IMG/VR virus record: IMGVR_UViG_3300035502_001146
DNA from: an uncultured virus (IMG/VR IMGVR_UViG_3300035502_001146)
Lineage: Duplodnaviria > Heunggongvirae > Uroviricota > Caudoviricetes
Strand: one strand, 5' to 3'
Length of the DNA: 56,565 nucleotides
In this document: positions 21,503 through 56,565 of the stretch, piece after piece
Layout of the letters: each line of letters opens with the position of its first letter
How positions within the stretch are numbered: the stretch's first letter is position 1
Program-made: the position numbers and the translations under genes
Notes under the pieces: model-generated
What the model saw: the letters and a program-made list of their open reading frames with translations, nothing else
Database searches by the model: none
Told to the model about the DNA's origin: nothing

Positions 21503-23497
21503 TTGGCTATGAATGAAATGATTAAAGGTAGGATTGTTAGATTAAGAAATCTAATAAATAACCAAAATGAATTATACTTTAAAAATTCTTCTGAAAATAA
21601 TATCTCTGATTCATTGTACGATAAACTTTTAGAAGAATTAAAAAAGTTGGAAGAACAATTCCCCGAATTTAAAGATAGTAATTCTCCTACACAAAATATT
21701 GGTGATTATGTAGATGAAAACTCATTTAATAAAGTAAATCATAAAATTCCTATGTTGTCTTTAGATAAAGTTTTATCTATAGAGCAATTTAACGATTGGT
21801 TTAAAAAAGCATTTAATAAATTAAATATTAAAGAATTTATTATTGAATATAAATTTGATGGTCTTGCAAATTCTTTAGTATATGAAAATGGTTATTTGAC
21901 ACAAGCAAGTACAAGAGGTAATGGAAAAGTCGGCGAAGATAATACTGCAACTGCAAAACTTATTCCTAATATTCCATATTATATAGAACAATTTAAGGAT
22001 ATTGAAAAAGTAGAAGTAAGAGGGGAAATTCTTTTATTAAAGGAAGGTTTAAATGAAATAAATAAAAATCTATCCGAAGATAATCAATATAAAAATGTTA
22101 GAAATGCTGCAAGCGGTATTTTAAAGAATAAATTACCTAATACTGACTACTGTAAATATTTAATATTCTCACCATACGGTTATTATGAAAATGACGATTT
22201 TTATAATGATACTTACTTAAAAGATATTAAATTATTAAAGGATATATTTATTACTCCATATAAAACTTTAGCAGCTATTAAAGTAAATAATATTGATAAT
22301 GCTATAGAAAAATTAAACACTTTATTTAATGAAGTATATGAAGGTAGAAATAATTTAAATATTGATATTGATGGTATTGTAATTAAAGCTAATAAATATG
22401 ACGATTGGAATAGACTTGGTATAGGTAAAAAATATCCTAACTATGCTGTAGCTTATAAGTTCCCAGCAATGGAAAATACAAGCATATTATTAGATGTTGA
22501 ATGGTGTTTAGGTGGTAAGGGGGCTATTACTCCTAAGGCTGTGATAGAGCCTGTTCAAATAGGTGGTTCAACTATTGGTTATGCTACACTGCATAATATT
22601 CAGTATATTAAAAACTTAGATTTAAAGCTCGGTGATACTGTAATTGTATCAAAAAGAGGCGATGTGATACCCTGTATCGAGTCTGTAATAAAAGATTTAA
22701 GAAGTGGTGAAGAAAAGGAAATAACTATTCCTACTGTCTGCCCATCTTGTGGGCAACCTTTAAAATCTAATACTACTGATAAAGGTATTTTCCTTTACTG
22801 TGATAATGAAAATTGTATAGGTATGCAAGTCAATAAAATAGAAAACTTTATTAAGGCTATGGAAATTGATAATTTCGGTACTGTACTTATAAATAAATTA
22901 TTTAGTAATGGTAAATTAAAAACCTTTATTGATATTTATAAATTAAATAAAAATGATATTTCCTCATTGGAAAAGATGGGAGATAAATCAGCAGATAAAG
23001 TAATAAGTAATATTGAAAAATCAAAAGATAATGAATTAAGTCAAATAATAGACGGTTTAATGATTAAGAGCGTATCTAAGGAAAAAGGTAAGATATTGCA
23101 AGATAAATATAAAACCTTGGATAAGTTTATAAATTGTACGGAAGAAGAATTGTTATCTTTACCCACATTTGGGGAAATATTAGTAAATAATATCTTGGAA
23201 TATGTAAATAAGAATAAAGATATAATAAACGATTTAATTAAATTGGGTATAATTGGTAAAGTAAAAAATAATAGTGGTAAATTAAATAATAAATCATTTT
23301 GTTTTACGGGTAAGTTAAGTATATCAAGAAATGAAATGACAGATATTATAGAAAATAATGGTGGTACTGTTAGCAGCATTAAAAAGGGTACTGACTATTT
23401 AATTATTGGTGAGGGGGCTAAAGAGAATAAAATTGATAAAGCTAAAAGTTATGGTATTGAAGTAATTACTGAAAAGGAATTTAATAATTTACTTTAA
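21503..23497 (+). CDS. ligA: NAD+-dependent DNA ligase
   Basis: H..PMLSL, EYKFDG (KxDG), STRGNG, EVRGE, DGIVIK, AYKF, CPSC..C..C zinc finger, HhH region, C-terminal BRCT (FCFTG..GG). Confidence 0.97.
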   Translation: MAMNEMIKGRIVRLRNLINNQNELYFKNSSENNISDSLYDKLLEELKKLEEQFPEFKDSNSPTQNIGDYVDENSFNKVNHKIPMLSLDKVLSIEQFNDWFKKAFNKLNIKEFIIEYKFDGLANSLVYENGYLTQASTRGNGKVGEDNTATAKLIPNIPYYIEQFKDIEKVEVRGEILLLKEGLNEINKNLSEDNQYKNVRNAASGILKNKLPNTDYCKYLIFSPYGYYENDDFYNDTYLKDIKLLKDIFITPYKTLAAIKVNNIDNAIEKLNTLFNEVYEGRNNLNIDIDGIVIKANKYDDWNRLGIGKKYPNYAVAYKFPAMENTSILLDVEWCLGGKGAITPKAVIEPVQIGGSTIGYATLHNIQYIKNLDLKLGDTVIVSKRGDVIPCIESVIKDLRSGEEKEITIPTVCPSCGQPLKSNTTDKGIFLYCDNENCIGMQVNKIENFIKAMEIDNFGTVLINKLFSNGKLKTFIDIYKLNKNDISSLEKMGDKSADKVISNIEKSKDNELSQIIDGLMIKSVSKEKGKILQDKYKTLDKFINCTEEELLSLPTFGEILVNNILEYVNKNKDIINDLIKLGIIGKVKNNSGKLNNKSFCFTGKLSISRNEMTDIIENNGGTVSSIKKGTDYLIIGEGAKENKIDKAKSYGIEVITEKEFNNLL

Positions 23498-24434: not shown

Positions 24435-25871
24435 ATGAGCAATGAAGATAAAACAATGATTATATGTAGAAAAATTACACTCACACCACTTGGTGATAAA
24501 GCGGAAGTAGATAGGGTATATAAATTTATTCGTGATGGACAAAAAGCTCAATATAAAGCTCTTAATCTCTTTATGAGTAAATATGCAAATTTATATTATA
24601 AGTATAATTGCGATAAAACTAATGAAGATTATAAAAAAGAAGTAAAAGAAATGCGTAGAGCTGCGTATTATAATTCATTATATAACTCTGCTGATATTGT
24701 TTTCTGTACGGGTGTTGATACTCAATCTTTAGTATCTAAAAAGGTTATAAGTGATTTCGATACTGCATACAATAATGGTTTAAAGCGTGGTGAAAGAAGT
24801 ATAAATAATTATAAATCTGACTCCCCTCTTATGACAAGACATATTAATTTGAAGTTTAATTATGATTATGCAACCGAGGAAGAATTTTTACAACATTTAA
24901 ATAGTCAAGATTTATCTATAACTATGGGTTGGGTAAATCATATTAAATTTAAAGTTAATTTCGGTAAGGGTAAAAATGTTAAAAAGTCTTATGAATTGAG
25001 AAGTGTATTCAAAAAGATTTTAGTAGATAAAACTTATTCTGTTAGGGATAGCTCAATTACTATTGAAGATAATAAAATCATTCTTAATTTGTCTTTGAGA
25101 ATACCTAAGAATATTGTTGAGCTTGACAATAATACTGTTGTAGGTGTTGACCTTGGTATTGCTGTTCCTGCTGTGTGTGCAACTAATAATACTATAGCAA
25201 AACAGTTTTTAGGTTCAAAAGATGATTTCTTGAAAACAAGAACGCAAATACAAAACCAAAGAAGAAGATTATATAGTGCTTTGAAAAATTCTAATGGTGG
25301 TAAGGGTAGAGATAAAAAACTTAAAGCCGTAAATAAATTTTCTGAAAAGGAAAAGAATTTTGTTGCTACTTATAATCATACTATAAGTAAACAAATTGTT
25401 GATTTTGCCATAGCTAATAAAGCTAAGTATATCAATGTGGAAGATTTAGAGGGTTATGATACAGATAAATTTGTTTTGAGAAATTGGTCTTATTATCAAC
25501 TGCAATCACAAATTGAATATAAAGCAGCTAAGTACGGTATTGAATTAAGAAAAGTAGACCCATATCATACCTCACAAAATTGCTCTTCTTGTGGTCATTG
25601 GGAAGAAGGTCAAAGGAATGGTAGATATTTTGAATGTAAGGCTTGTGGAGCTAAAATGAATGCTGATTTAAACGCCGCAAGGAATATTGCTTTATCTGCT
25701 AATATTACTTATGCTGATGGAAAGAAGATAGAAACTAATACTACTGATGTTCCTAAAAAGAAAACTTATAAGAAAAAGTCTAAGGCGGTAAATAAAGCAG
25801 TGAATAAAATTAAAGAAAAGAATAAAACTAACAATATAACAGATAATGTAACTACTAAAGAAGTAATTTAA
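24435..25871 (+). CDS. Cas12f1-like (type V-F/TnpB superfamily) RNA-guided nuclease, no adjacent array
   Basis: RuvC I VGVDLG, RuvC II INVEDL, LRNWSYYQLQ..IEYKA, CSSC/CKAC zinc ribbon, RuvC III NADLNAARNI; GL.RGERSI.NYK...PL and GGKGR.KKL motifs as recalled from clostridial Cas12f1. Confidence 0.85.
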   Translation: MSNEDKTMIICRKITLTPLGDKAEVDRVYKFIRDGQKAQYKALNLFMSKYANLYYKYNCDKTNEDYKKEVKEMRRAAYYNSLYNSADIVFCTGVDTQSLVSKKVISDFDTAYNNGLKRGERSINNYKSDSPLMTRHINLKFNYDYATEEEFLQHLNSQDLSITMGWVNHIKFKVNFGKGKNVKKSYELRSVFKKILVDKTYSVRDSSITIEDNKIILNLSLRIPKNIVELDNNTVVGVDLGIAVPAVCATNNTIAKQFLGSKDDFLKTRTQIQNQRRRLYSALKNSNGGKGRDKKLKAVNKFSEKEKNFVATYNHTISKQIVDFAIANKAKYINVEDLEGYDTDKFVLRNWSYYQLQSQIEYKAAKYGIELRKVDPYHTSQNCSSCGHWEEGQRNGRYFECKACGAKMNADLNAARNIALSANITYADGKKIETNTTDVPKKKTYKKKSKAVNKAVNKIKEKNKTNNITDNVTTKEVI

Positions 25872-35406: not shown

Positions 35407-35865
35407 ATGAATAAGATATTAAGAAGATTTGCGAGCTTTAAGAAAATAGCAAACATAGAAGCCTTTGAGGAAAAGTATGAGATTAAGGATAAGAATGAGC
35501 TTAGTGTATTTGCAAGTTATAAGATTTATGATACTGAATTAGATAACCCTGAACTTAAAGAAGTAGAAGAAGAAATAATGTTTGATATTGAATTTTCTGA
35601 GGACGAGGTAAATAAGTTAGCGGATAAGATTAAGAAAGAATATGTTTCTTACCAAGGTATACCAAAAGAAGATGTATGTGATTTTTATATAAGCAATGGT
35701 GAGTTAAAATCAAAGTGTGGTATGTTCTTAAATAAGAGAGGATATTATACATACGAATATATAAAGAAAGAAGTACCACAATACACAGAGGAAACTAAAT
35801 ATAATATAATGATAAATGGTATAGTAGTAGACAATGAAAAAGATTTACAAATGATGGGATTTTAA
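35407..35865 (+). CDS. acidic protein with basic N-terminal leader
   Basis: GAGGAG RBS; MNKILRRFASFKKIA leader. Confidence 0.8.
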   Translation: MNKILRRFASFKKIANIEAFEEKYEIKDKNELSVFASYKIYDTELDNPELKEVEEEIMFDIEFSEDEVNKLADKIKKEYVSYQGIPKEDVCDFYISNGELKSKCGMFLNKRGYYTYEYIKKEVPQYTEETKYNIMINGIVVDNEKDLQMMGF

Positions 35866-36005
35866 GAATTATAAATGATGAAAAAATAAATATAAATGAT
35901 GAAAAAGACAGGTAATATTATTTACCTGCCTTTTCACTTTGAAGGTATAAAATATATATAAAAAATTAGATAACGCTTTGTTTAGAAAAACTTCTTTGTT
36001 TTTTG

Positions 36006-36170
36006 CTACATAGCTTCTTTGTTTATATTTCTTTCTTTAAAACACGTTGGGCAATAAATAGTCTTATCCTTACCAAAGAGTAATTTTAGATAAGTCTGCT
36101 CATTTACCTTACCCTTTTTACCACAACAATCACACCTAACATAATAATTACCATTCACCATCTTTACCAT
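36006..36170 (-). CDS. small CxxC...CxxC zinc-finger protein (54 aa, not in ORF track)
   Basis: AAGGAGG RBS, promoter ~36220-36248; MVKMVNGNYYVRCDCC...CPTCFK. Confidence 0.75.
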   Translation of the reverse strand: MVKMVNGNYYVRCDCCGKKGKVNEQTYLKLLFGKDKTIYCPTCFKERNINKEAM

Positions 36171-36523
36171 TCTTTACATTCCTCCTTTTTTGTAATCGCT
36201 CTTTTTTGTTTACGATTATATTATATCATAAATTTTATTATTTGTCAAGTATTTTTTAGAAAATTTTAAAATTATTTTTTAAAAGTAAAAAGGGAGCTTT
36301 AATACTCCCTTTAAAAAACATTTTTTCAATTATAAGATATTTTATAAATATTTAAGATATCTTATAAATACTTCTATCCATTATTCTATTTACAACGCCA
36401 TCAATATTGTAATGTAATTTAAAGCATTTGTCACATAGAGAAGTTTTATTAGTTTTAGGCAGAATACCCCCACTTCAAAAAAATCGTTAGATTTTTTAAG
36501 TGGAGGGATGAATGCCTTTTTTG

Positions 36524-38020
36524 TTAAATATATACTAATCCACTATTATTCCTAATAATGGTACAGTCTTTTGTAGGATAGTTTGTATTTTTGTCACCTA
36601 CTGCACGAAGATATTGTCCATTAGAAAGCTGACCACTCATAGTATAAATCTTGTTCTTATACTCAAATTGAGTTCCTGGCATAAGTCTATTTTTAGTATT
36701 ATATCTTCTAGTACTCTTAGTAACTTGTAATTTGGATTGAAGCTTTCTAGCTTCTAATTTTCCAAATTGTTGCTTAGTTTTGATATACCATTCATGTAAT
36801 GAATCTTCTTTTTGGTCCATACGTTTTCTTCTATTCTTAGCAACAATTTGGTTATCTAACTTATAAACTCTCTCTGTTTGAGCTTTGACAATACTTCTAT
36901 TATGTTTTCTAAATTGTTTCAATTGAAAACAATCTTCAGGAATATCTAATAAAAAATTATCGTTATCTTTTAAAATACTTACTGCTATACAATAGGCATC
37001 TATATTATGGTCTTTCTTAATATTAAATTCATTTCTAAAGCATTTGGTATTGTAACCGTTGGTTACAATCACTTCATACTTTTTAGACAATTCATTTATT
37101 AGAAATGGAATAATTTGATTTAATACTGATAAAGCACCATACTTTTTATTTAATCCATTCTTTTTAGTTAATAATTTTTTATTCCATTTCTCATTATTAT
37201 GAACCAAAGTATGGTGCTTTTCACATACACCTGCTATATTAGATATAGTGTTACTACCACCTTTACTTTTAGAAATTATATGATGATAATGGTCTATTTT
37301 ATTTTTACATAAAATACAATGACAATTTTGTTGCTCATTTATGGCTTCTTCTAATGAACCTTTTTTATATAAAGGACCTCTAGTATAATCCAACTTTCTA
37401 ACATTAGGATTATCTAAAGCCATAAATGCAAATTTATTAATTTCTATTACAATAGTTTGAATAGGAAGAAGAGACGAAGTCTTTTCTACTTTATTCAAAT
37501 GTGTTTGTAATAGTTGTCTTGCAGTAGGAGTGAGCCACCCTACATCTCTTTTCCTATTGCAAAATTTAGATTCTGAATTGATAATATCATATATAAAAAT
37601 AGGCTTATCGTATTTAGGTAAAATTCTTTCTTTAGGATAAGAAAATATAGTATTACACTTTTTAGCTCTTCTCTTACGGCATAGGCGTTCACCTCTACGT
37701 GAAGCCATTCTATGAACTTTACGATTAGCCATAAGTTTAGGTATTTCCTTATTCCTAGTTTCTGTATGAGCTGAATATAGTGTTTTACCGTCTATCCTGA
37801 TAGCTGTATCACCTATATTAGTTCTACCTGGGTCGATACCTAAAATTATAGGTTGAACCACTTTTGTTTTAGTTTCATACAATAGTTGTATGGTAAAAGG
37901 TTTTCTGTTCACCATTTTAGCTTTTTTAGATTTCAATAATCTATACACTTTACCAGAACGGATTGTAGGCATAAGTAGTGAACCGTTTAAATCTAAAACA
38001 TATATAATTGACATACCCAC
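36524..38020 (-). CDS. iscB: IscB RNA-guided endonuclease
   Basis: LLMP (PLMP) N-terminus, PFTIQL, RuvC I LGIDPG, Arg-rich bridge helix, IVIE, HNH (C..C...HH....GGSN...N...C..HH), RuvC III H.IDA. Confidence 0.92.
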   Translation of the reverse strand: MGMSIIYVLDLNGSLLMPTIRSGKVYRLLKSKKAKMVNRKPFTIQLLYETKTKVVQPIILGIDPGRTNIGDTAIRIDGKTLYSAHTETRNKEIPKLMANRKVHRMASRRGERLCRKRRAKKCNTIFSYPKERILPKYDKPIFIYDIINSESKFCNRKRDVGWLTPTARQLLQTHLNKVEKTSSLLPIQTIVIEINKFAFMALDNPNVRKLDYTRGPLYKKGSLEEAINEQQNCHCILCKNKIDHYHHIISKSKGGSNTISNIAGVCEKHHTLVHNNEKWNKKLLTKKNGLNKKYGALSVLNQIIPFLINELSKKYEVIVTNGYNTKCFRNEFNIKKDHNIDAYCIAVSILKDNDNFLLDIPEDCFQLKQFRKHNRSIVKAQTERVYKLDNQIVAKNRRKRMDQKEDSLHEWYIKTKQQFGKLEARKLQSKLQVTKSTRRYNTKNRLMPGTQFEYKNKIYTMSGQLSNGQYLRAVGDKNTNYPTKDCTIIRNNSGLVYI

Positions 38021-38039
38021 ACTCCTTTCTTATAAAGTA

Positions 38040-38265
38040 AAAATAAATAAAATAAAAATAATATAAATATATTGTTCTAAAGCGGTAAGCGAGTACAATA
38101 TACAAAACTCTAAGGTTTCCCTAAGTTAGATATAATGTTTCCAGTTTAACTATCGACTGGGAAAATCAATAGGTGGCATTATATCTATATGCTTCTGCTC
38201 AACAAGCCTTACGGCAAGCCACCACTTCTAAAAATTCATAGAATTTTTAAGTGGTGGTTGTTGAC
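38040..38265 (-). ncRNA. IscB omegaRNA scaffold (3' boundary approximate)
   Basis: begins GTCAACAACCACCACTT...AAGTGGTGGCTTG; multiple hairpins between element end and iscB start. Confidence 0.75.
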
Positions 38266-38552
38266 TTATTCCTGATATGTAATCTTTGTATCTATCCGCA
38301 TTACTGATATTTACAGAACTACATACGTCACAAATTGCATAAAACTTATCATTTGATTTTTTAACCATAAAAATTACCCTCTTTCTTTTTTATTTTGTAA
38401 AATTATAATAACACAAAGTTCGAATTTTGTCAATACTAAAAGGAAAAATTGATATAAAAAATTATATATAAAATTTTACATTTTTATATATTGACAAAAA
38501 ATAGAAAATGTTGTATAATTAAGCTAAAAAATATATAAAGGAGGAAAGAATC

Positions 38553-38774
38553 TTGGAAGCAAGAGTTGGAACAAGGATAGGAAATTTTGTAATAGAAAAG
38601 GAATTAAAACCTAAAATGAAAAGAAATCATATATTATATAGAAATTTTCTATGTAAGTGTGTGAAGTGTACGGGATATAGAATATTGGGTGAATATAAAT
38701 TACAATACGCAGCAATTACTGATTGTGAAGCTTGTGACCACGGCTTGCGAGAGGCTATTGAAAATGGACTATAA
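38553..38774 (+). CDS. small Cys-rich protein
   Basis: promoter 38491-38519, AAGGAGG RBS; CKC..C, C..C. Confidence 0.65.
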   Translation: MEARVGTRIGNFVIEKELKPKMKRNHILYRNFLCKCVKCTGYRILGEYKLQYAAITDCEACDHGLREAIENGL

Positions 38775-49136: not shown

Positions 49137-49694
49137 ATGAATAAGATTAAAGAAAGAATGAATAAAAAGTCTACTATGAAGAAAATTGCTGCTGGTGCAT
49201 CTGTTTTTGATGTTTGGGTTAGAAGATTAGATAACGATAAGGAAATGGAGCTTAGTTTGCCAACAGATAATCTTGAAGATGAACTTGCTAAAGGTCTTGG
49301 TGAGGATTATTGGAATCAAGATGTTATTATTGTTGATGTTGATAGCGACATCCATAATGGTGTTGACCAATATAGTGTTGGAACATTGAATGACCTTGCA
49401 GAAGAAATAGCTACACTTGATGATAGTGAAATTGAAGTTGTTGCAGCTCTTGTAAATGATGGTGGTTATGATATTGAAGATGCAATTGAAAAAGCACCTG
49501 AGTGTTATGTTACTAATGCTAAAACTGATGAAGATTTAGGTTATTACTATGTTGAAGACGTATATGGTGGTCCAAGTGAATTAGGTAAAGACACTCTTGA
49601 GCGTTACTTTGATTATGAAAGTTTTGGTAGAGATATTAGATTAGAAGGTAACTTTATTGAAACTGATAATGGTTATATTGAAGTTCCATACTAA
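49137..49694 (+). CDS. ardA: ArdA antirestriction (DNA-mimic) protein with basic leader
   Basis: LNDLAE.I..L, EDLGYYYVE, LERYFDYESFGRDIRLEG.F.ET..GY.E matches the ArdA C-terminal signature. Confidence 0.85.
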   Translation: MNKIKERMNKKSTMKKIAAGASVFDVWVRRLDNDKEMELSLPTDNLEDELAKGLGEDYWNQDVIIVDVDSDIHNGVDQYSVGTLNDLAEEIATLDDSEIEVVAALVNDGGYDIEDAIEKAPECYVTNAKTDEDLGYYYVEDVYGGPSELGKDTLERYFDYESFGRDIRLEGNFIETDNGYIEVPY

Positions 49695-50070: not shown

Positions 50071-51155
50071 ATGCCAGTAATTATACCACAAAAAATTGAA
50101 GTTATACCTTGCAATAGAGCACCTCATTATAGAAGTAAAGGGTATGTGTTTACAAATCCAAGATTAAAAATTGAAGTAGAAGCAAGAGATTTAAGTAGTG
50201 GAAGTAATAAAAAAGTTTTATGTGAATGTGATTGTTGTAAAATTGAATTTAAAAAAGGTTTTAAGTTTATAGAAAATATTAATGAAACATATTGTGGAAA
50301 GTGTTCTACGATAATTACTTGTCAAAAAAAATATGGCAAAGATAGTCCAATGCAAGACGAACAAATTAAGAGAAAAATAAAAAAAACAAATCAGAAAAAA
50401 ATGAAGAAGACCCGTTAAGAGTAAAAAGAATTATAAAAAAAAGAGAAGAAACGAATATGAAGAAACATGGTGCAAAATATTATTTGCAATCAGAAAAAGG
50501 AAAAGAAAAACAAAGAAATACAATAAAAGAAAAGTATGGTAAAGATATTGAAAATATTTCTCAAATAGAAGAGGTAAAAAATAAAAAACGACAAACTTGT
50601 TTGAAACATTTTGGTGTAGAAAATCCTTCACAAGATGAGAGTGTAAAAAGAAAAAAAATAGAAACTTGTAAAAAACATTATGGTGTAGAGTATTTTTCAC
50701 AATTAGAAATTGAGAAACAAAAGAGTAGAGAAAAACTTATAGGTATGGTAGAAAATGGTAAATGGAACATATCCTCAAAGTCTCAAAGGTATTTATGCGA
50801 ATTGTTAAAAGGAGAACTTAATAAATCAATAGCAAAAGGTACAGTTGTTGATATCATAAAAGATAATTATGCAATTGAATATGATGGTTCAGGTCATTGG
50901 TATGCAGTGATAAGAAAAAAGAATAAGATTACTTTAGAAGAATTTAATAAAAAAGAAAAAGAAAGAGAAAAAAGGATTCTTAGTAAAGGATATAAACTTA
51001 TTAGAATAATTAATGCTAATGCAAAAAATGCAGATAAACTTCCATCTGATGAATTTATTTTAAATACTATGGAATCTATTAAAAACGAATTAAATATTCA
51101 AAATAAAAATATTGCTCGTTGGAATTTGGAAGACAATTCCATTATTTATGAATAA
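50071..51155 (+). pseudogene. frameshifted putative free-standing homing endonuclease (Zn-ribbon, K.YG repeats, PD-(D/E)XK/Vsr-like C-terminus)
   Basis: ORFs 50071-50418 and 50457-51155 join by a -1 shift near the A7 run at ~50395-50401; T..KKYG/KHFGVE/KHYGVE repeats in both; VDI....AIEYDG.GH. Confidence 0.65.
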
Positions 51156-51428: not shown

Positions 51429-54400
51429 TTGGCTAAAACAACAGACACCAAACACGAATTAGAGAAAGTTAATAAGGAACACGAATTAGTTAAAGAAGAT
51501 GTATATGATATTCAGAATAATAAGATATTTGGTCAAGATATAAGTTTTTTGATTGGTAATAGAATTATGCAAAGAACTGACCCAATTTATTATTGTGAAA
51601 ATACTTTAAGATGCCATTTGCCTGAAAAGAAAAGACATTTGCACGAAAACCAAGTAGAGCTTATTAAGGCTGTTTGTAATCCTCACTATCGTAAGGTAGC
51701 AGGACTGATGGCAAGACAGGCTGGTAAATGTTTTGAAGCAGATACTTTAATTATGATGGCAGATGGTACTTCTAAAAAAGTACAAGATATTAAAGTTGGT
51801 GATTATGTAATGTCACCACAAAGCACTCCCTCAGAAGTAATTGCTTTGGGTAGTGGTTATGAAGAAATGTATGAAATATGTACAGCAGAAAAACATTATA
51901 AGAATTTTACTGTTAATGGTTCTCATATCTTAGCAGTAGAAGATAAAAAGAATAAAATAAAGACCATTACTGTAAATGATTATTTGAAATTAACAAAGTA
52001 TAGACAAAGCCAATTATTTGGTTATAGAACTTCTGTTGATTTTGAAGAAAAGCCTGTTACTATTGACCCTTATTATTTAGGTTTATGGTTGGGTGATGGT
52101 AGAAGTAATTATAGTGAAATCTCTAATATAGATGAAGAAATAATAAATTATGTACAAGAATATGCTGAACGATTAAATATGAAATTTGCAGTATATGAAG
52201 GTGTTGGTGGTAGAATTAATTCTTATGCTATTACCAATGGTAACAATGGAACTAAGAGCAATACTAATTATATAATTGATGAATTAAGAAGAATGAATCT
52301 TTATAATAACAAACACATTCCTGATGAATATTTATATAATAGTATGGAAATTAGAAAGAAATTACTTGCAGGTTTAATTGATACTGACGGTTATAAAGAA
52401 AAAAATTGTACATTAACTATTTCTTTTGCTAATAAAAATTTAGCTGATGATACATTAAAACTTTTACAAATGTGTGGTTATCGTGCTTCAATGAAAGAAA
52501 AAATTGTAAAAATGAATGGTAAAAGTTTTTTAGAATATGTAATTTATGCTTATGGTGATTTTACAGATGTACCTATAAGGTTAAAAAGAAAACAATATAC
52601 AATGAAACCACAATGTGACCATTTAAAGTTCGGTTTTACTATTAAATCAAAAGGTATGGGTAAATATTATGGTTTTGTAATAAAATCAGATGACCATTTA
52701 TTTTTGTTGGACGATTGTACTGTAGTCCACAATACAGAGAGTATCGCAAGTTTTACTGGTTATTTGCTCGATAATTATCCACAAATGAGAATTGGCATAT
52801 TCACTCCAAGAATACAACAGGCAGAGGTGGGCAAAATCTTGCCTCTATATTCCTAATTACTTGATAAAGTAAGGTATATTAAAATATCAAATGCTTTAAT
52901 ATGCTAACGAGGAAGACTTAGCATTACACATAAATGTTAAAATATGTTTAGGTGAAGTTAATCTCGTGCGAATTATAACAATTAAATAATTGTTATTCGT
53001 GTATCGACTATCCCAAGTTAGATTGGGAGTACAGACTTATATAAAAGTTTGGAAACGGAATAACTGATTTAAAAAGTTTGACAAACTTATAGGTTAAGAA
53101 ATAGTCAGTCCTATTAGAAATAATAGATTAGATGAAATGTTGGTAGAGTTGCCATTTTTTACCAAATGAATGAAGAAAAACTAAACAATCAACTTGTTCG
53201 TTGTAATAAACAAAAGATAGAATTAAGTAATGGTTCTTATGTAATGGCAGTATCAGGTTCTGACCAATCTAATATCGAAGGTTTAACTTTCGACGTAATC
53301 GTACTCGATGAAGCCCAAAAGATAAGTGATTATACGTGGAGTGAACGTATAATGCCAATGGGTGGAGCTACGAATGCTAAGATGATTAAAATTGGAACAC
53401 CAAAGACGAGAAATCATTTTTATCAATCATTCCAAGTTGATACTGAAAATCCAAGAAATAATTGGAAATGTGTAAAAAGAGATTGGACACAATGCCCTCA
53501 GTTATGGGCTTTGGATTCTACAATGTTACCTGACCCACAAACAGGTATTTTAAGACCATATAGTACTTACGTTCTTTCTCTTATGCCTAAAGCATTAAAG
53601 CAAGAAATGTTTCCTAATAATCCTGAAATGTGGTTCGAAGGAGTAGCCAAAAGGCTATGCTCCCTATTAAGAAGTAATTCTTAGTAGAAAAATTCTTTTA
53701 ATTGCTGAAAATTCTTAAAGCTAATTATACTATTAAAGTGTTTAATAGTTGTGAAAACAGAAATAAATAATTAGATAATATATGACGATAGTAAGTCTAA
53801 GTATTAAAATGATAAATTTTAACAATAGATAATCAGCAGCAAAATATATAAACATTTATATATATGTTCAACGACTATGCCTGAAAGGCAGTAGGATATA
53901 AGTATATCTGAAATAGAGAAATACTTAATATATTTAAGTATATGAGATAGTCTGTACAATGATGAAAGTTATTGATTTTTATAAATATTATTACATAACG
54001 AATAATAATTAACACAATAGAAATGTCAATAGAAGATTTTAAAACGCAGTATATGCTCGAATTTATTGATGGTTTAAACATTTTTAGACCCATTTTTGTA
54101 GTAATATAAAAATGAAAAAATTTTTTAATTGCTGAAAAATCTTAAAGCTAATTATACCTTACAAAAAGGTTACGAAAGTAAAAATAAATAATTAGATAAT
54201 ATATGGTGATAGTAAACCTAAGTATTAAAATGATAAATTTTAACAATAGATAATCAGCAGCAAAATATATAAATAAAAAATTGTTTATATGTATGTTCAA
54301 CGACTATGCCTGAAGGGCAGTAGGATAAAAGTTTATCTGAAATGGAAGAGTACTTAATTTGTTTAAGTAGATGAGATAGTCTGTGCAATAATGAAAATTA

Positions 54401-56565
54401 TTGAAAATTACAATTAAAAATAAAAACAGCTTAATTTTTTAAAAAATATTATTATATAATAAAATCAAGGAGGTGAGAAAAATGGAATATTATAAAGGAT
54501 TTAAAACACAAATTTATCCTAATGATGAACAAATTGAATATTTTGATAAATGTTTTTCTATAAGTAGATATGCTTATAACTGGTATATTAGGAAAAGAGA
54601 TTTTAATTATAAAAATGGAATAAAACAAAGTTATTTTGATTTACAAAAAGATTTTACAAAAATAAGAAATTCGCAAGGTTATGAATGGTTGTTAGAAACT
54701 AATAATAAGGTTGTGGATGAAGCTTTAAAAAATTGTAAAAAAGCTTATGATAACTTTTTTAATGGTATAAAAAGTAGACCCAAATATAAATCTGAAAACG
54801 ATGCAAAACAAATTTTTAGTTCAAGTAGGTGCTTGATTGATTCTAATGCAAAGCATTTAAGAAAGAAAAAATATTTGTTTGATGGGTTTCATTTTTATAT
54901 TGCAGGAAAACAAACAATACCAGGTGTAACCAATGGATATTTTATAAAAACAGCGGAAGATATCTCTTTTTTGAAAAATAAAAAGGTAATATTGGTTTCA
55001 ATTTCTAAAGAAAATAATAAATATTATGTAGGATTTACATATAAAGAAAATAGTAATTATGTAAATAATTCTACTCAAATAGTTGGAATTGATATTGGTA
55101 TTAAAACATTTGCTACTCAATCTGATGAAAAAATTGCAAAACTTCCTAAAAAGATAGATATGTATTATGAAAGGATTGATAAGTTAAATCAAGTTTTAAG
55201 TAAAAAGCAAAAAGGTAGTAATAATTATGAAAAAGTGAAAATTAAAATCAATAAATATTATAGAAAAATAAAGGATTTAAAGATGGATTTCTGTCATAAG
55301 TATACTACATATTTAGCTAAAAACTACAATGAAATAAAAATTGAAGATGTTAGTGTTCAAGAATGGTTTGAAAAAAAAGATATAAAATTGAGTAAAAACT
55401 TGCAAAAATCTTGTTTAGGTTTGTTTAGAGAACAACTTGAATACAAATGTGAATGGTATAATAGTAAACTTACAAAAATAGATAAATATTATCCTTCTTC
55501 AAAAACTTGTAGTTGTTGTGGTAATGTAAAACAGGATTTAAAATTATCAGATAGAGTATATAAATGTGAAAAATGTGGTTTTGAAATGGATAGAGATTTG
55601 AATGCTGCAATAAATATTTTGAATTATTCAGCTTTAAACTATTCGAGAATATTAAATAATGAGGATTAATAAAAACAACAAATCCAAAAACTTCGGTTTG
55701 AAGTTGGAATATCTTATATTCCATTAGACTTGAAAAATTATTTTTGATAATTAAGTAGAGTAAGTTAATTAAGCTATATTTTTAATTGTAAAATATTATT
55801 ATGTAACGAATAATAATTAACAAAACAGTGGGCAAGTTTTTCGGTCTTGAAGATATAAATAGATTAAGGTCAGGACAATTTGAATGGTTAGATTGTGGAG
55901 ATATGTCAGAAGAGTATTATGCTGGAATTGACTTTGCAGGTTCAGGTTCAGCAACAGCCGACTTCACACATATAACCGTTATAAGAAAAACATCAACAGG
56001 TATAAAGCAAAAAGTATTCGCAAAGGAGATGCAAGGTGTCGCATACCCAGAACAAATGCGTATTATAGCTAATTTGTTATCAGGATATAACGCAAAATTC
56101 CATTGTAGACGTATTTTTGCCGACTATACAGGAGTAGCTAAAAAGCCAAACTCCCTATTAAGAAGTAATTCTTAATAGAAAATTCTTTTAATTACTGAAA
56201 GTTCCTAAAGCTAATTATACTATTAAATATTTTAATAGTTGCGAAAGCAGAAATAAATAATTGGATAATATATGATGATAGTAAGTCTAAGTATTATAAG
56301 AAATAATAATTTCTAATAATGGATAATCAGTAGTAAAGTATATATTTTTTATATACATATTCAACGACTATTCCGAAAGGAAGTAAGATATAAGTATATC
56401 TGAAATGGAGAAATATTTAATTTATTTAAGTATATGAGATAGTCTGTACAATAATGAAAATTATTGATTTTTATAAATGTTATTATATAACGAATAATAA
56501 TTAACAAAATAGTTGGTAGACCTGTTGTGGATTCTTTAATTTATGATTATGGAATGAGTAATCTA
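51429..56565 (+). CDS. terL: terminase large subunit, spliced and 3'-partial: exons 51429-52828, 53135-53643, 54021-54074, 55829-56134, 56513->56565
   Basis: Walker A ARQAGK/T, Walker B VIVLDEAQ, KIGTP, nuclease YAGIDFA and DYTG/VG; exons join in frame. Confidence 0.9.
51729..52733 (+). mobile_element. intein (335 aa) with LAGLIDADG endonuclease in terminase Walker A
   Basis: starts CFEADT after GK, ends VVHN before T; LGLWLGDG and LAGLIDTDG motifs. Confidence 0.95.
52829..53134 (+). ncRNA. group I intron 1 (306 nt, no ORF)
   Basis: P1 AGAGGU/GCCUCU with U.G; P7 GACUA/UAGUC (TATCGACTA, AAGAAATAGTC); terminal G; splicing gives AEV-NVGRVAIFYQM. Confidence 0.9.
53644..54020 (+). ncRNA. group I intron 2 (377 nt, no ORF)
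   Basis: AATTGCTGAAA, AATCAGCAG, TTCAACGACTA, GAGATAGTCT core; splicing gives WFEG-EMSIEDFKTQY. Confidence 0.88.
54075..55828 (+). mobile_element. group I intron 3 (1754 nt) carrying tnpB downstream of P7
   Basis: same core as introns 2 and 4; P1 GGUUUAA/UUAGACC with U.G; ends ...AACAAAACAG; splicing gives FIDG-LGKFF. Confidence 0.88.
54473..55669 (+). CDS. tnpB: TnpB RNA-guided nuclease, intron-encoded
   Basis: FKTQIYPN.EQ N-terminus, RuvC VGIDIG, IKIEDV, YPSSKTCS.CG...C..CG...DRDLNAAINI; AAGGAGG RBS. Confidence 0.93.
   Translation: MRKMEYYKGFKTQIYPNDEQIEYFDKCFSISRYAYNWYIRKRDFNYKNGIKQSYFDLQKDFTKIRNSQGYEWLLETNNKVVDEALKNCKKAYDNFFNGIKSRPKYKSENDAKQIFSSSRCLIDSNAKHLRKKKYLFDGFHFYIAGKQTIPGVTNGYFIKTAEDISFLKNKKVILVSISKENNKYYVGFTYKENSNYVNNSTQIVGIDIGIKTFATQSDEKIAKLPKKIDMYYERIDKLNQVLSKKQKGSNNYEKVKIKINKYYRKIKDLKMDFCHKYTTYLAKNYNEIKIEDVSVQEWFEKKDIKLSKNLQKSCLGLFREQLEYKCEWYNSKLTKIDKYYPSSKTCSCCGNVKQDLKLSDRVYKCEKCGFEMDRDLNAAINILNYSALNYSRILNNED
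56135..56512 (+). ncRNA. group I intron 4 (378 nt, no ORF)
   Basis: near-copy of intron 2 with compensatory P4 change (TTACTG/CAGTAG); splicing gives DYTG-VGRPVVDSL. Confidence 0.88.

Follow-up and report, generated by a model that had tools for sequence, protein, structure and literature searches.

A TnpB-bearing group I intron within the terL gene of a phage G-like phage and its likeness to IStrons

The window analysed here, a stretch of 56,565 nucleotides of DNA from an uncultured virus, closes with the large terminase gene (terL) of a giant, phage G-like phage, interrupted by an intein and by introns 1 to 4. Positions 54075-55828 are a 1754-nt group I intron, intron 3, which carries a tnpB gene. 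A sequence-only reading, made without database searches, had placed this intron in a phage packaging gene, and the match of the terL exons to gp1 of phage G bears this out. The gene is laid out as follows, with slashes marking splice points.

51429-52828, + strand: terL exon 1, whose Walker A motif is split by an intein (approximately 51729-52733; AGK/C...HN/TES)
52829-53134, + strand: intron 1, group I, of a family other than that of introns 2-4 and not in the sister phage
53135-53643, + strand: terL exon 2, corresponding at 73% identity to residues 127-300 of phage G gp1
53644-54020, + strand: intron 2, paralogous to intron 3 but without an ORF, splicing after GGAG/U
54021-54074, + strand: terL exon 3, 54 nt, encoding EMSIEDFKTQYMLEFIDG, gp1 residues 301-318
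54075-55828, + strand: intron 3
55829-56134, + strand: terL exon 4, gp1 residues 334-427, junction peptide EFIDGLGKF
56135-56512, + strand: intron 4, an ORF-less paralogue, splicing after GGAG/U
56513-56565, + strand: start of terL exon 5, within which the window ends

When gp1 is aligned by tblastn, residues 3-94 end at 51728 and residue 95 restarts at 52734, the gap being the intein, which matches the Pfam families Hom_end_hint, Hom_end and LAGLIDADG_3. Intron 1 matches the group I model RF00028 at 27.2 bits (E 6e-4), under the gathering score; its junction peptide, QQAEVNVGR, is the same in phage G, and in the sister phage (contig L008) the exons are contiguous at this site (1634/1635). Splicing in silico at 54074/55829 and at the remaining exon boundaries leaves a reading frame free of stops and yields junction peptides that match gp1, the exon 4-exon 5 junction reading FADYTGVGRPVVDSL where gp1 has FADYTGCGRPIIDIL. 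Exon 3 is identical to that of the sister phage at 54/54 positions and holds, at 54066-54070, the TTGAT that had been noted 4 nt ahead of the 5' splice site of intron 3.

Introns 2, 3 and 4 are mutually paralogous (79-88% identity by BLAST) and belong to a family that has multiplied within terL, with three copies in the window and eight in the sister phage. The three window copies and five of the sister phage share a common fold running from P1 to P9 with P7.1 and P7.2, in which 33 of 90 pairs show compensatory changes. RF00028 scores the window introns at only 17-27 bits against a gathering score of 50; on the known IStron of Clostridium botulinum phage c-st it gives no match at E<=1 either. 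A profile built from the family does match the ribozyme of that IStron (L030 942-1202, E 1.6e-18); the rest of the 26 loci searched, intron 1 and 51.4 kb of the window gave no match. Introns 2 and 4 splice after G, leaving the U of the U-G pair intronic, and for intron 2 the frame holds only with a 5' exon that ends in G, whereas intron 3 is inserted after TT, splices after U and ends in CAG. Intron 3 is also the only one of the 11 family copies to contain the tnpB cassette, the others being ORF-less. Its internal features, all on the + strand, are these.

54075-54404, + strand: ribozyme part, P1 to P9 by the consensus fold, with the P9 hairpin at 54386-54403 (GAAA loop)
54405-54437, + strand: 33 nt absent from the ORF-less orthologue (the first of two extra segments), holding the 5' arm of an inverted repeat (54408-54422 and 54428-54436)
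54438-54459, + strand: left copy, 22 nt equal to J9/P9.x of the ORF-less orthologue, with TTTAA and a 17-nt stretch that recurs at 55790-55806
54466-54474, + strand: Shine-Dalgarno sequence of tnpB, AAGGAGGTG, 7 nt before the ATG, as read from the sequence
54482-55669, + strand: tnpB, intact, 395 aa, with possible ORF starts at 54473 (GTG) and 54482 (ATG)
55670-55789, + strand: 3' UTR of tnpB with predicted stem-loops at 55684-55707 and 55706-55722, a candidate omegaRNA scaffold
55767-55791, + strand: 3' arm of the inverted repeat (segments 55767-55775 and 55777-55791)
55790-55828, + strand: right copy (55790-55806), P9.x hairpin (55795-55817, loop GUAACGA) and intron tail, from alignments and cofolding

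The cassette gene had been described as an intact tnpB with its own ribosome-binding site and no transposase, and both halves of that description hold. The protein matches Pfam HTH_OrfB_IS605, OrfB_IS605 and Cas12f1-like_TNB (E 4e-12 to 4e-25) and the NCBIfam model guided_TnpB (257 bits, cut-off 100), and its RuvC residues D207, E291 and D375 and its CxxC..CxxC zinc finger fall in invariant or near-invariant columns of a 15-sequence alignment. The protein collection holds the same 395-aa TnpB (P0001), followed by relatives (P0002-P0005) at 70% and 65-67% identity, relative to which the C-terminus is 13 aa longer. Other phage TnpBs are 33-34% identical and that of the c-st IStron 32%; the closest tnpB DNA matches in the phage collection are the OrfB genes of c-st and D-1873 (75.9% over 190 nt). 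No match to Y1 or serine transposase families was found in the 53 window ORFs scanned, out of 61 that reach at least 90 aa, and neither tnpA nor a remnant of it is present, the 5' arm and the tnpB start being only 45 nt apart. The intact TnpB most likely still works as an RNA-guided homing nuclease.

TnpB-only insertion sequences are very common, and the protein also matches NCBIfam IS200_TnpB (241 bits), as would be expected of an ordinary IS200/IS605-type (IS1341-like) insertion with standard ends and no bearing on intron biology. We consider such an insertion very improbable. The 56.5-kb window holds no second copy, its other TnpB-like gene being 29% identical; four sister-phage contigs hold none either (best match 35%), and in IMG/VR no relative exceeding 37% identity was found, nor were the inverted-repeat arms at another place. 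An identical tnpB with standard IS ends at unrelated loci is the case that the sequence-only reading had named against itself. Scans of genome and metagenome contigs likewise gave no copy at other loci, a weak negative because they were confined to a few peptide patterns. The ends of the cassette, moreover, are a 24-bp inverted repeat of the kind seen in IStrons, while IS200/IS605 elements are described as having no terminal inverted repeats (PMC4227781).

This inverted repeat accounts for the long-range stem that had been proposed to loop out the cassette. Its outer arms (54408-54422 and 55777-55791) are 15 nt long and 100% complementary, and a further nine pairs (54428-54436 with 55767-55775) extend the stem to 24 pairs, 21 of them A-U (88%), with no mismatch within the paired segments. 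The duplex energy of -19.8 kcal/mol was reached by 0/500 shuffles of the 3' arm. A perfect 15-nt inverted repeat arises somewhere in the intron in 12/500 Markov simulations and is weak evidence alone, so the weight rests on the extension and on the location of the arms exactly at the boundaries of the insert. Beyond the cassette the normal intron 3' end resumes, as had been claimed: the stretch 55790-55828, including the terminal G at 55828, is common to ORF-less family members. As the cassette is placed after P9 but ahead of the last hairpin, the intron continues beyond the 3' arm with an ordinary tail of 37 nt. On this anatomy and that of published IStrons, the A-U-rich stem would shut off the 1.35-kb cassette in the pre-mRNA and place P9 next to the P9.x hairpin and the 3' splice site, which would allow intron 3 to splice and restore terL.

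How the cassette came to lie there is best judged from copies that lack it. Introns 2 and 4 had been taken to represent the empty state, and the orthologous intron of the sister phage (L008 4383-4711) proves to be empty too. Up to the insertion point it is identical to intron 3 at 324 of 330 positions (98%), and the filled intron equals the empty orthologue plus 33 nt and 1347 nt, the 22-nt empty-site sequence being intact. The 17-nt duplication starts directly 3' of TTTAA and ends in the P9.x loop; TnpB reportedly cuts at about such a distance from its motif. With the exception of copies A and C, the latter entirely without P9.x, the other family members have the same collinear J9/P9.x layout, and none has remnants of either arm. 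The two phages differ at 7 of 481 nt over 53924-54404 and at 71 of 802 flanking nt (Fisher p = 9e-9), and past the cassette there are two differences in the 38-nt tail and four in the first 11 nt of exon 4. This step in divergence at the cassette site points to a recombination breakpoint at or beside the cassette, which appears recently added here while the sister phage keeps its intron empty. Together with the duplication, it would fit a nuclease acting at this site. Quite probably, the cassette joined an already ORF-less copy rather than being lost from all the others, and its source may have been an L008-like phage with a filled allele. A loss through two deletions is less probable, though the 17-nt direct repeats on either side of the 1347-nt segment would promote deletion and gain of the cassette takes two insertions, one of them the 33-nt segment with the 5' arm.

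Hairpins do lie 3' of tnpB, as reported, with predicted folds within 55684-55722. The fold z-score of the region is only -2.1, and a search of 55550-55900 against Rfam at E<=10 gave neither RAGATH-18, which is found 3' of the c-st tnpB, nor another family, only two chance-level minus-strand matches. The lack of an omegaRNA family match and the weak structural signal are what one would expect if the cassette were a passive passenger, a TnpB-only IS remnant that landed or was recombined in a tolerant spot of the intron and persists only through its loop-out stem, lacking both a functional guide RNA and any part in homing, or merely modulating splicing. The extended C-terminus, the window without transposase, the restriction of the cassette to one family copy and the many IStrons with decayed ORFs described by Tourasse et al. 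(PMC4227781) agree with this. Such a remnant is nonetheless improbable in view of the full-length ORF with its complete catalytic and zinc residues and strong ribosome-binding site, the mismatch-free stem, the recent recombination indicated by the divergence step and a cassette base composition that matches the phage (22.9% against 25.9% G+C).

Instead, we favour, with a probability of roughly 0.6, an element of the IStron type in which the TnpB cassette was acquired by a family member that had no ORF. Intron 3 is on the best reading of its sequence an IA2 group I ribozyme, homologous to those of group B IStrons, with a TnpB-only cassette. According to Tourasse et al. (2014, PMC4227781), IStron ribozymes are of class IA2 and the IS part comes after the P9 domain, which is where tnpB lies here too. 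In group B, the IS607-type elements such as BcISt1 of the Bacillus cereus group and CbISt3/CbISt4 of C. botulinum phages c-st and D-1873 (PMC4227781; Zedaveinyte et al. 2023, PMC10690162), an inverted-repeat stem of 15-34 bp and >80% A-U encloses the ORF region, as in intron 3; that of c-st has arms of 35 nt that are 97% complementary. Group B elements are also described as repeating a short piece of the 5' arm ahead of the 3' arm, which gives a competing local hairpin (PMC4227781); in intron 3 such a copy directly precedes the 3' arm, for which a hairpin at about 55746-55789 competes. Splicing after G with an intronic U, as in introns 2 and 4, has been demonstrated by experiment for BcISt1. 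'ORF B only' and ORF-less IStrons, and copies in phages, are known as well (PMC4227781). CsISt1 of Clostridium sporogenes, a group B element compared by description only, carries ORF B only, inserts after AG and ends in CAG (PMC4227781), just as intron 3 is TnpB-only and ends in CAG and its sister introns are inserted after AG (GGAG/).

The proposal of an architecture different from that of IStrons therefore stands in part. Cassette placement, the 37-nt tail (in c-st the guide starts just 5 nt past the 3' arm) and the lack of RAGATH-18 RNA 3' of tnpB do set intron 3 apart, but a homologous ribozyme, a published stem layout and TnpB-only, ORF-less and phage-borne precedents (PMC4227781) leave a difference in kind unsupported. 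Unlike group B elements, intron 3 has no tnpA, is inserted after TT rather than GG or AG, and encodes a TnpB distant from that of c-st; ORF-less BcISt1 is described as keeping its inverted-repeat stem-loop (PMC4227781), whereas the ORF-less copies here have no arms. Group A elements (IS200/IS605-type, e.g. CdISt1 of Clostridioides difficile) share the T-rich pentanucleotide target motifs TTGAT, ATTAT and TTTAT and the ending ..CAG, but their stem is short (6-10 bp) and of balanced composition (PMC4227781) and their element ends are the splice sites. What distinguishes intron 3 from known IStrons is thus the cassette between P9 and the last hairpin, the empty orthologue in a sister phage, the 17-nt duplication and the jump in divergence.

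The nuclease had been suggested to target either intronless terL or ORF-less introns, and the evidence, which is indirect, leans towards the latter. Under classical IStron logic the scaffold would run through the 3' arm, P9.x hairpin and tail to the 3' splice site, exon 4 would supply the guide with its first 16-20 nt (UGGGCAAGUUUUUCGG...) and exon 3 the TAM at its end (..TGGTT), so that TnpB cuts the intronless terL of co-infecting phages and the entire 1754-nt intron homes. The C. botulinum IStron works in this way, its scaffold ending at the 3' splice site and its 3' flank serving as guide (PMC10690162), and there the last stem-loop, SL5, serves both splicing and the omegaRNA (PMC13521648); the P9.x hairpin, kept by ORF-less copies, could be its counterpart. 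An exon 4 guide would also spare introns 2 and 4 and the left copy from self-targeting, and the presence or absence of terL introns is strongly polymorphic between the two phages. We nevertheless hold this rather unlikely here. The recently shared tract ends inside the intron at the cassette site, with tail and exon 4 diverging, a mismatch with whole-intron homing, which predicts co-conversion of both exons; GGTT is unlike the target motifs TGGG, TTGAT, ATTAT and TTTAT (PMC4227781, PMC10690162); and the P9.x hairpin and tail, absent as to P9.x from copy C, are a property of the ORF-less family and not of the cassette.

A guide drawn from the intron itself is possible, if a little short of even chances: the P9.x region right of the cassette (AAAAUAUUAUUAUGUAA..., whatever adjoins its right end) would direct TnpB to ORF-less copies, which would be cut beside TTTAA/TTTAT, so that homing would spread the cassette among introns and the nuclease would not carry the complete intron to intronless terL. 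Ahead of the candidate target the ORF-less copies have TTTAA or TTTAT, with TTGAT after their P9, and TTGAT and TTTAT are among the published group A target motifs. In c-st, too, the guide begins close to the 3' arm, 5 nt past its end, and the candidate guide of intron 3 differs from the empty orthologue, the best match among ORF-less copies, at 1/20 positions. It differs from introns 2 and 4 at only 2/20, and the left copy retains TTTAA and matches at 16 of 17 bases, so an intron-directed guide would carry a risk of self-cleavage. Such movement would resemble the way in which free-standing homing endonuclease genes invade group I introns that lack an ORF (Bonocora and Shub 2009; Zeng et al. 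2009; as cited in PMC13565253), where a nuclease gene likewise joins a pre-existing ORF-less phage intron and empty and filled alleles coexist, the difference being that the nuclease here is an RNA-guided TnpB and not a protein-guided HNH, GIY-YIG or LAGLIDADG enzyme.

The terL gene, which encodes the large terminase, fills the last 5 kb of the window and belongs to a phage related to Bacillus phage G, whose uninterrupted terminase, gp1 (73% identical to exon 2), was used as the reference for locating the interruptions of terL, namely:

~51729-52733, LAGLIDADG intein, in the terL Walker A motif, between AGK and C
52829-53134, intron 1, group I, in terL
53644-54020, intron 2, group I, in terL
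54075-55828, intron 3, group I, in terL
56135-56512, intron 4, group I, in terL

Joined in silico, the exons form 774 codons without a stop, the junction peptides QQAEVNVGR, WFEGEMSIEDF, EFIDGLGKF and FADYTGVGRP agree with gp1, and frame analysis of introns 2 and 4 allows only splicing after GGAG. A motif search of IMG/VR recovered four contigs of a sister phage (L008-L011, up to 379 kb), identical over the locus, and a broader P7-P9 pattern search returned the same four contigs and nothing further.

The insert of intron 3 encodes a TnpB protein of 395 aa (54482-55669) with all three Pfam TnpB domains, a score of 257 bits against the NCBIfam guided_TnpB model, the D207/E291/D375 RuvC triad and a zinc ribbon, the feature set of an RNA-guided endonuclease; with AAGGAGGTG lying 7 nt 5' of its ATG, it bears out the sequence-only reading, which had described an intact tnpB with its own ribosome-binding site. 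Relatives in the protein collection are 70%, 65-67% and 53% identical, while the best DNA match in the phage collection is the IStron locus of Clostridium phage c-st, the TnpB of which shares only 32% protein identity. Searches for closer TnpBs with DNA context in IMG/VR, GTDB genomes and JGI metagenomes gave only 25-37% relatives and one 19-residue fragment, the GTDB and JGI scans being weak negatives built on a few peptide patterns, and the sister-phage contigs hold no TnpB above 35% identity. The transposase, too, is missing as proposed: the scan covered 53 window ORFs (61 have at least 90 aa, the other eight overlapping longer ORFs) and gave no match to a Y1 or serine transposase family, and just 45 nt separate the 5' arm of the insert from the tnpB start, leaving no room for tnpA.

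A perfect inverted repeat of 15 nt lies at the two ends of the insert and, after a small bulge, continues for 9 more pairs (54408-54422 and 54428-54436 with 55767-55791), giving a long-range stem of 24 pairs, 21 of them A-U. The duplex energy of -19.8 kcal/mol was matched by none of 500 shuffles, so this stem, already drawn around the insert in the earlier reading, holds up; a 15-mer inverted repeat by itself arose in 12 of 500 simulations, and the evidential weight of the stem lies in its extension and its placement at the insert ends. As a DNA pattern the arms have no match in IMG/VR. When cofolded in their local context, the P9 hairpin, the long-range stem and the final hairpin come to lie next to each other, an arrangement in which the stem would loop the cassette out and let intron 3 splice. 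The 3' arm is followed by 37 nt, comprising a hairpin at 55795-55817 with the loop GUAACGA and then a tail that has CAG at its end, which are common to the ORF-less family members; the cassette therefore sits between P9 and the last hairpin, and a normal intron 3' end does resume after it.

At the same terL site, the sister phage has a cassette-free intron of 374 nt (L008 4383-4756) that matches the ribozyme part of the window intron at 324 of 330 positions, so the empty state read earlier from introns 2 and 4 is now represented by an orthologue as well. The filled intron consists of the empty one with two additions, 33 nt (54405-54437, containing the 5' arm) and 1347 nt (54460-55806), between which the 22 nt of the empty site, TTTAAAAAATATTATTATATAA, stand intact at 54438-54459 as the left copy. 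The last 17 nt of TTTAAAAAATATTATTATATAA occur a second time, differing at one position, where the cassette ends on the right (55790-55806); this duplication begins right after TTTAA and stops in the loop of the last hairpin. When aligned locally, the duplicated regions score 36, and 17 of 2000 random window pairs do as well; the c-st IStron has no significant counterpart of the left copy (122 of 1000 random pairs score equally).

Comparison of the family copies indicates that the cassette was probably gained rather than lost. Either course would require two local events, and the direct repeats flanking the 1347-nt segment would favour its deletion; loss is nevertheless not the favoured explanation, because none of the ten other family copies keeps traces of the arms and because the empty orthologue is collinear with its paralogues across the junction (TTGA-TTTAAA-AAAT versus TTGA-TTTTTAT-AAAT), a layout that two independent deletions would have had to restore by chance. 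Two other accounts of the junctions were rejected: a terminal-inverted-repeat transposon with a 4-bp AAAT target duplication leaves the left copy unaccounted for and needs a 6-nt deletion, and a serine-recombinase crossover at AA does not fit the left junction.

Introns 2, 3 and 4 are paralogues of one another, and the sister-phage terL holds eight further members of the family (A, B, C, 2', 3', 4', 5' and 6'). All eleven copies lie within terL of the two phages, with none elsewhere by profile search of the fetched loci and the window or by P7-P9 pattern search. The consensus fold of eight aligned copies comprises P1-P9 with P7.1 and P7.2, supported by compensatory changes in 33 of 90 pairs. 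P7.1 and P7.2 are hallmarks of class IA2, and together with an extended P9 and kinship to IStron ribozymes they give the family the ribozyme of an IStron; the kinship comes from an nhmmer search with the family profile, run over 371 kb of retrieved loci and 51 kb of the window, whose sole match was the c-st IStron ribozyme (L030 942-1202, E 1.6e-18). Rfam finds nothing in the whole window at gathering score, and its group I model RF00028 gives the family introns 17-30 bits, below threshold, which we do not count against them since the published IStron has no match to that model at E<=1.

Family insertion sites follow GGAG, GAGG or GGTT, and the P1 guide sequence is altered to suit (CUCC, CCUC and GACC):

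Family insertion sites
window 53640-53644 and 56131-56135
sister-phage locus L008 2605-2609, 3942-3946 and 4963-4967
sister-phage locus L032 4282-4286

This joint change of site and P1 is the pattern expected if reverse-splicing RNA pairing, or a short target motif, picks the sites. By frame analysis, introns 2 and 4 and sister introns C, 2', 4' and 6' have a 5' exon ending in G, the U of the U-G pair being carried by the intron. Intron 3 ends in CAG, which along with CGG is a group B IStron ending, but it is inserted after TT, where group B elements follow GG or AG, and splices after U.

The sister-phage terL as a whole (L008 1-5020, L032 1-4830) contains nine group I introns and two inteins, and we know of no such intron density in one phage gene. 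One intein, at the same Walker A place as window 51729-52733, has a diverged middle and 72.9% identity over 52324-52738; a mini-intein of ~150 aa sits at MGG/A..HN/T. Of the intron sites, just those of 2, 3 and 4 occur in both phages, intron 1 being present in the window alone and A, B, C, D and 4' in the sister phage alone. Intron D is a group I intron from outside the family (RF00028, 76 bits). In sister intron B (L008 2225-2582), splicing between GAGG and U combined with a terminal G never keeps the terL frame with ..DEAQKIS..; the frame would require either a 3' splice site after A or the loss of an Ala codon.

The sequence-only reading had taken intron 3 for an architecture different from that of IStrons. 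Most of this does not stand, as the layout is largely the ordinary one. As described in the two sources drawn on here, all IStrons carry their IS part 3' of the P9 domain, with the ORFs enclosed by an A-U-rich inverted-repeat stem that in group B spans 15-34 bp at >80% A-U; group B IStrons splice after G and keep the U in the intron, and ORF-B-only and ORF-less variants occur, phages c-st and D-1873 holding two IStrons (Tourasse et al. 2014, PMC4227781). Related introns carry TnpA, TnpB, homing endonucleases or nothing, TnpA-less IStrons exist, and the guide of an IStron TnpB begins at the 3' end of the element (Zedaveinyte et al., PMC10690162). The stem of intron 3 falls within the group B range, and the tnpB that it encloses lies, like ORF B, on the intron strand and 3' of the ribozyme core. 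Judged by the reading frame, introns 2 and 4 would also splice after G with U inside the intron; the missing tnpA is not disqualifying, TnpA-less IStrons being accepted members. The c-st element likewise has an inverted repeat (35 nt, 97% complementary) around its ORF region.

What does stand is the cassette upstream of the last hairpin, together with the absence of RAGATH-18 RNA and of tnpA. The right end of the IS is not the 3' splice site, nor does the IS module lie past the last P9 subdomain: 37 nt follow the 3' arm in intron 3, whereas 5 nt lead to the splice site in c-st. Rfam detects RAGATH-18 after the c-st tnpB and one other phage tnpB, but not after that of the window. Literature searches listed no case of a TnpB cassette that precedes the last hairpin of its intron or is carried by an intron of a terminase gene, although the supplements of PMC4227781 and PMC10690162 may include some. 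IStrons have already been published, also from phages, with TnpB alone or with no ORF, and so has IStron homing driven by TnpB, so that an RNA-guided homing intron is not new as an idea. What the locus contributes is a naturally occurring comparison of before and after: one intron, at one site of an essential phage gene, with and without the cassette and with a base-exact footprint. This bears on how nuclease genes enter ORF-less introns and on whether TnpB is automatically retargeted to its right-end flank, and the locus illustrates the extent to which a single phage gene can accumulate IStron-derived introns.

Divergence between the two phages changes abruptly along this stretch:

Identity of window and sister phage around intron 3
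exon 2, 53369-53643: 92.0%
intron 2: 92.6%
exon 3: 100% (54/54)
intron 3, ribozyme part: 98.2%
intron 3, 38-nt tail: 2 differences
exon 4, 55829-56037: ~90%, with 4 differences in the first 11 nt

Over the 481 nt of the tract 53924-54404 the two phages differ at 7 positions, whereas its flanks show 71 differences in 802 nt (Fisher p = 9e-9), and so sharp a step points to a recent exchange with one end at or inside the cassette. The pattern, from one genome pair, would fit a break at the cassette site followed by repair better than homing of the whole intron at the exon junction.

A TnpB module would take its guide from the right-end flank wherever it lands. In intron 3, the cassette is directly followed by AAAAUAUUAUUAUGUAA..., the last hairpin of the intron itself, and although we put it somewhat short of even odds, this flank is our preferred candidate guide, being consistent with the footprint, with the divergence step and with the spacing in c-st. 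Its targets would be ORF-less family introns, where the AAAAUAUUAUUAUGUAA sequence is preceded by TTTAA or TTTAT; the empty orthologue matches the candidate at 19 of 20 positions and the other copies at 17-19 of 20. Against it stands a risk of self-cutting, at the intron's own left copy (3 mismatches in 20) and at introns 2 and 4 (2 each). The alternative modelled on classical IStrons, a guide in exon 4 with a TGGTT TAM, would escape self-targeting, but it does not fit the divergence pattern and GGTT is unlike the other target motifs considered; we rate this guide as less likely. TTGAT directly after P9 was rejected as a TAM, the candidate right ends there not being followed by guide-like sequence. 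Stem-loops in the 3' region of tnpB are a candidate omegaRNA; no Rfam family of that type was found in 55550-55900. A promoter and terminator scan of 54000-56000 carried no useful signal, with 13 promoter-like sites where 16.9 are expected and no terminators.

TnpB would probably act as a homing nuclease and be supplied from intron-containing RNA. A more far-reaching reading, to which we assign a probability of about 35%, is that the cassette moves as a module of its own, guided by the intron 3' region, cutting ORF-less copies by TTTAA or TTTAT and copying itself in. Cutting and copying of this kind would naturally leave behind the duplication that ends ~17 nt from TTTAA as well as the divergence step. 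The guide would then be part of the excised intron, so that making it need not be at the expense of splicing, in contrast to classical IStrons, and, if true, an RNA-guided nuclease would pass from one intron to another when giant phages co-infect a cell. That TnpB has no current nuclease role is less probable still than a guide in exon 4, and every model alike leaves the origin of the 33-nt 5' arm unaccounted for.

The window encodes further nucleases of this type. A 498-aa IscB (36524-38020, minus strand) scores 197 bits against guided_IscB (NCBIfam, cut-off 175) and 135 bits against Pfam RRXRR, with no HEARO or other Rfam RNA in 35800-38700 around it. A second TnpB/Cas12f-like gene (24435-25871, plus strand; 478 aa) scores 187 bits against guided_TnpB and 120 bits against the Cas12f2 model, is 29% identical to the intron TnpB in the C-terminal half and lies outside introns of this family, bringing the OMEGA-type nucleases to three in one 56-kb phage stretch. 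On an unrelated IMG/VR contig with a distant TnpB, we noted a HEARO RNA, the IscB omegaRNA family (L016 6792-7000, 131 bits). Two ORFs 5' of terL (50071-51155) match DUF4379, weakly (a treble-clef zinc finger), and DUF7487, and may be free-standing nuclease-like genes. The phage also encodes an ArdA antirestriction protein (49137-49694) and an NAD-dependent DNA ligase (21503-23497).
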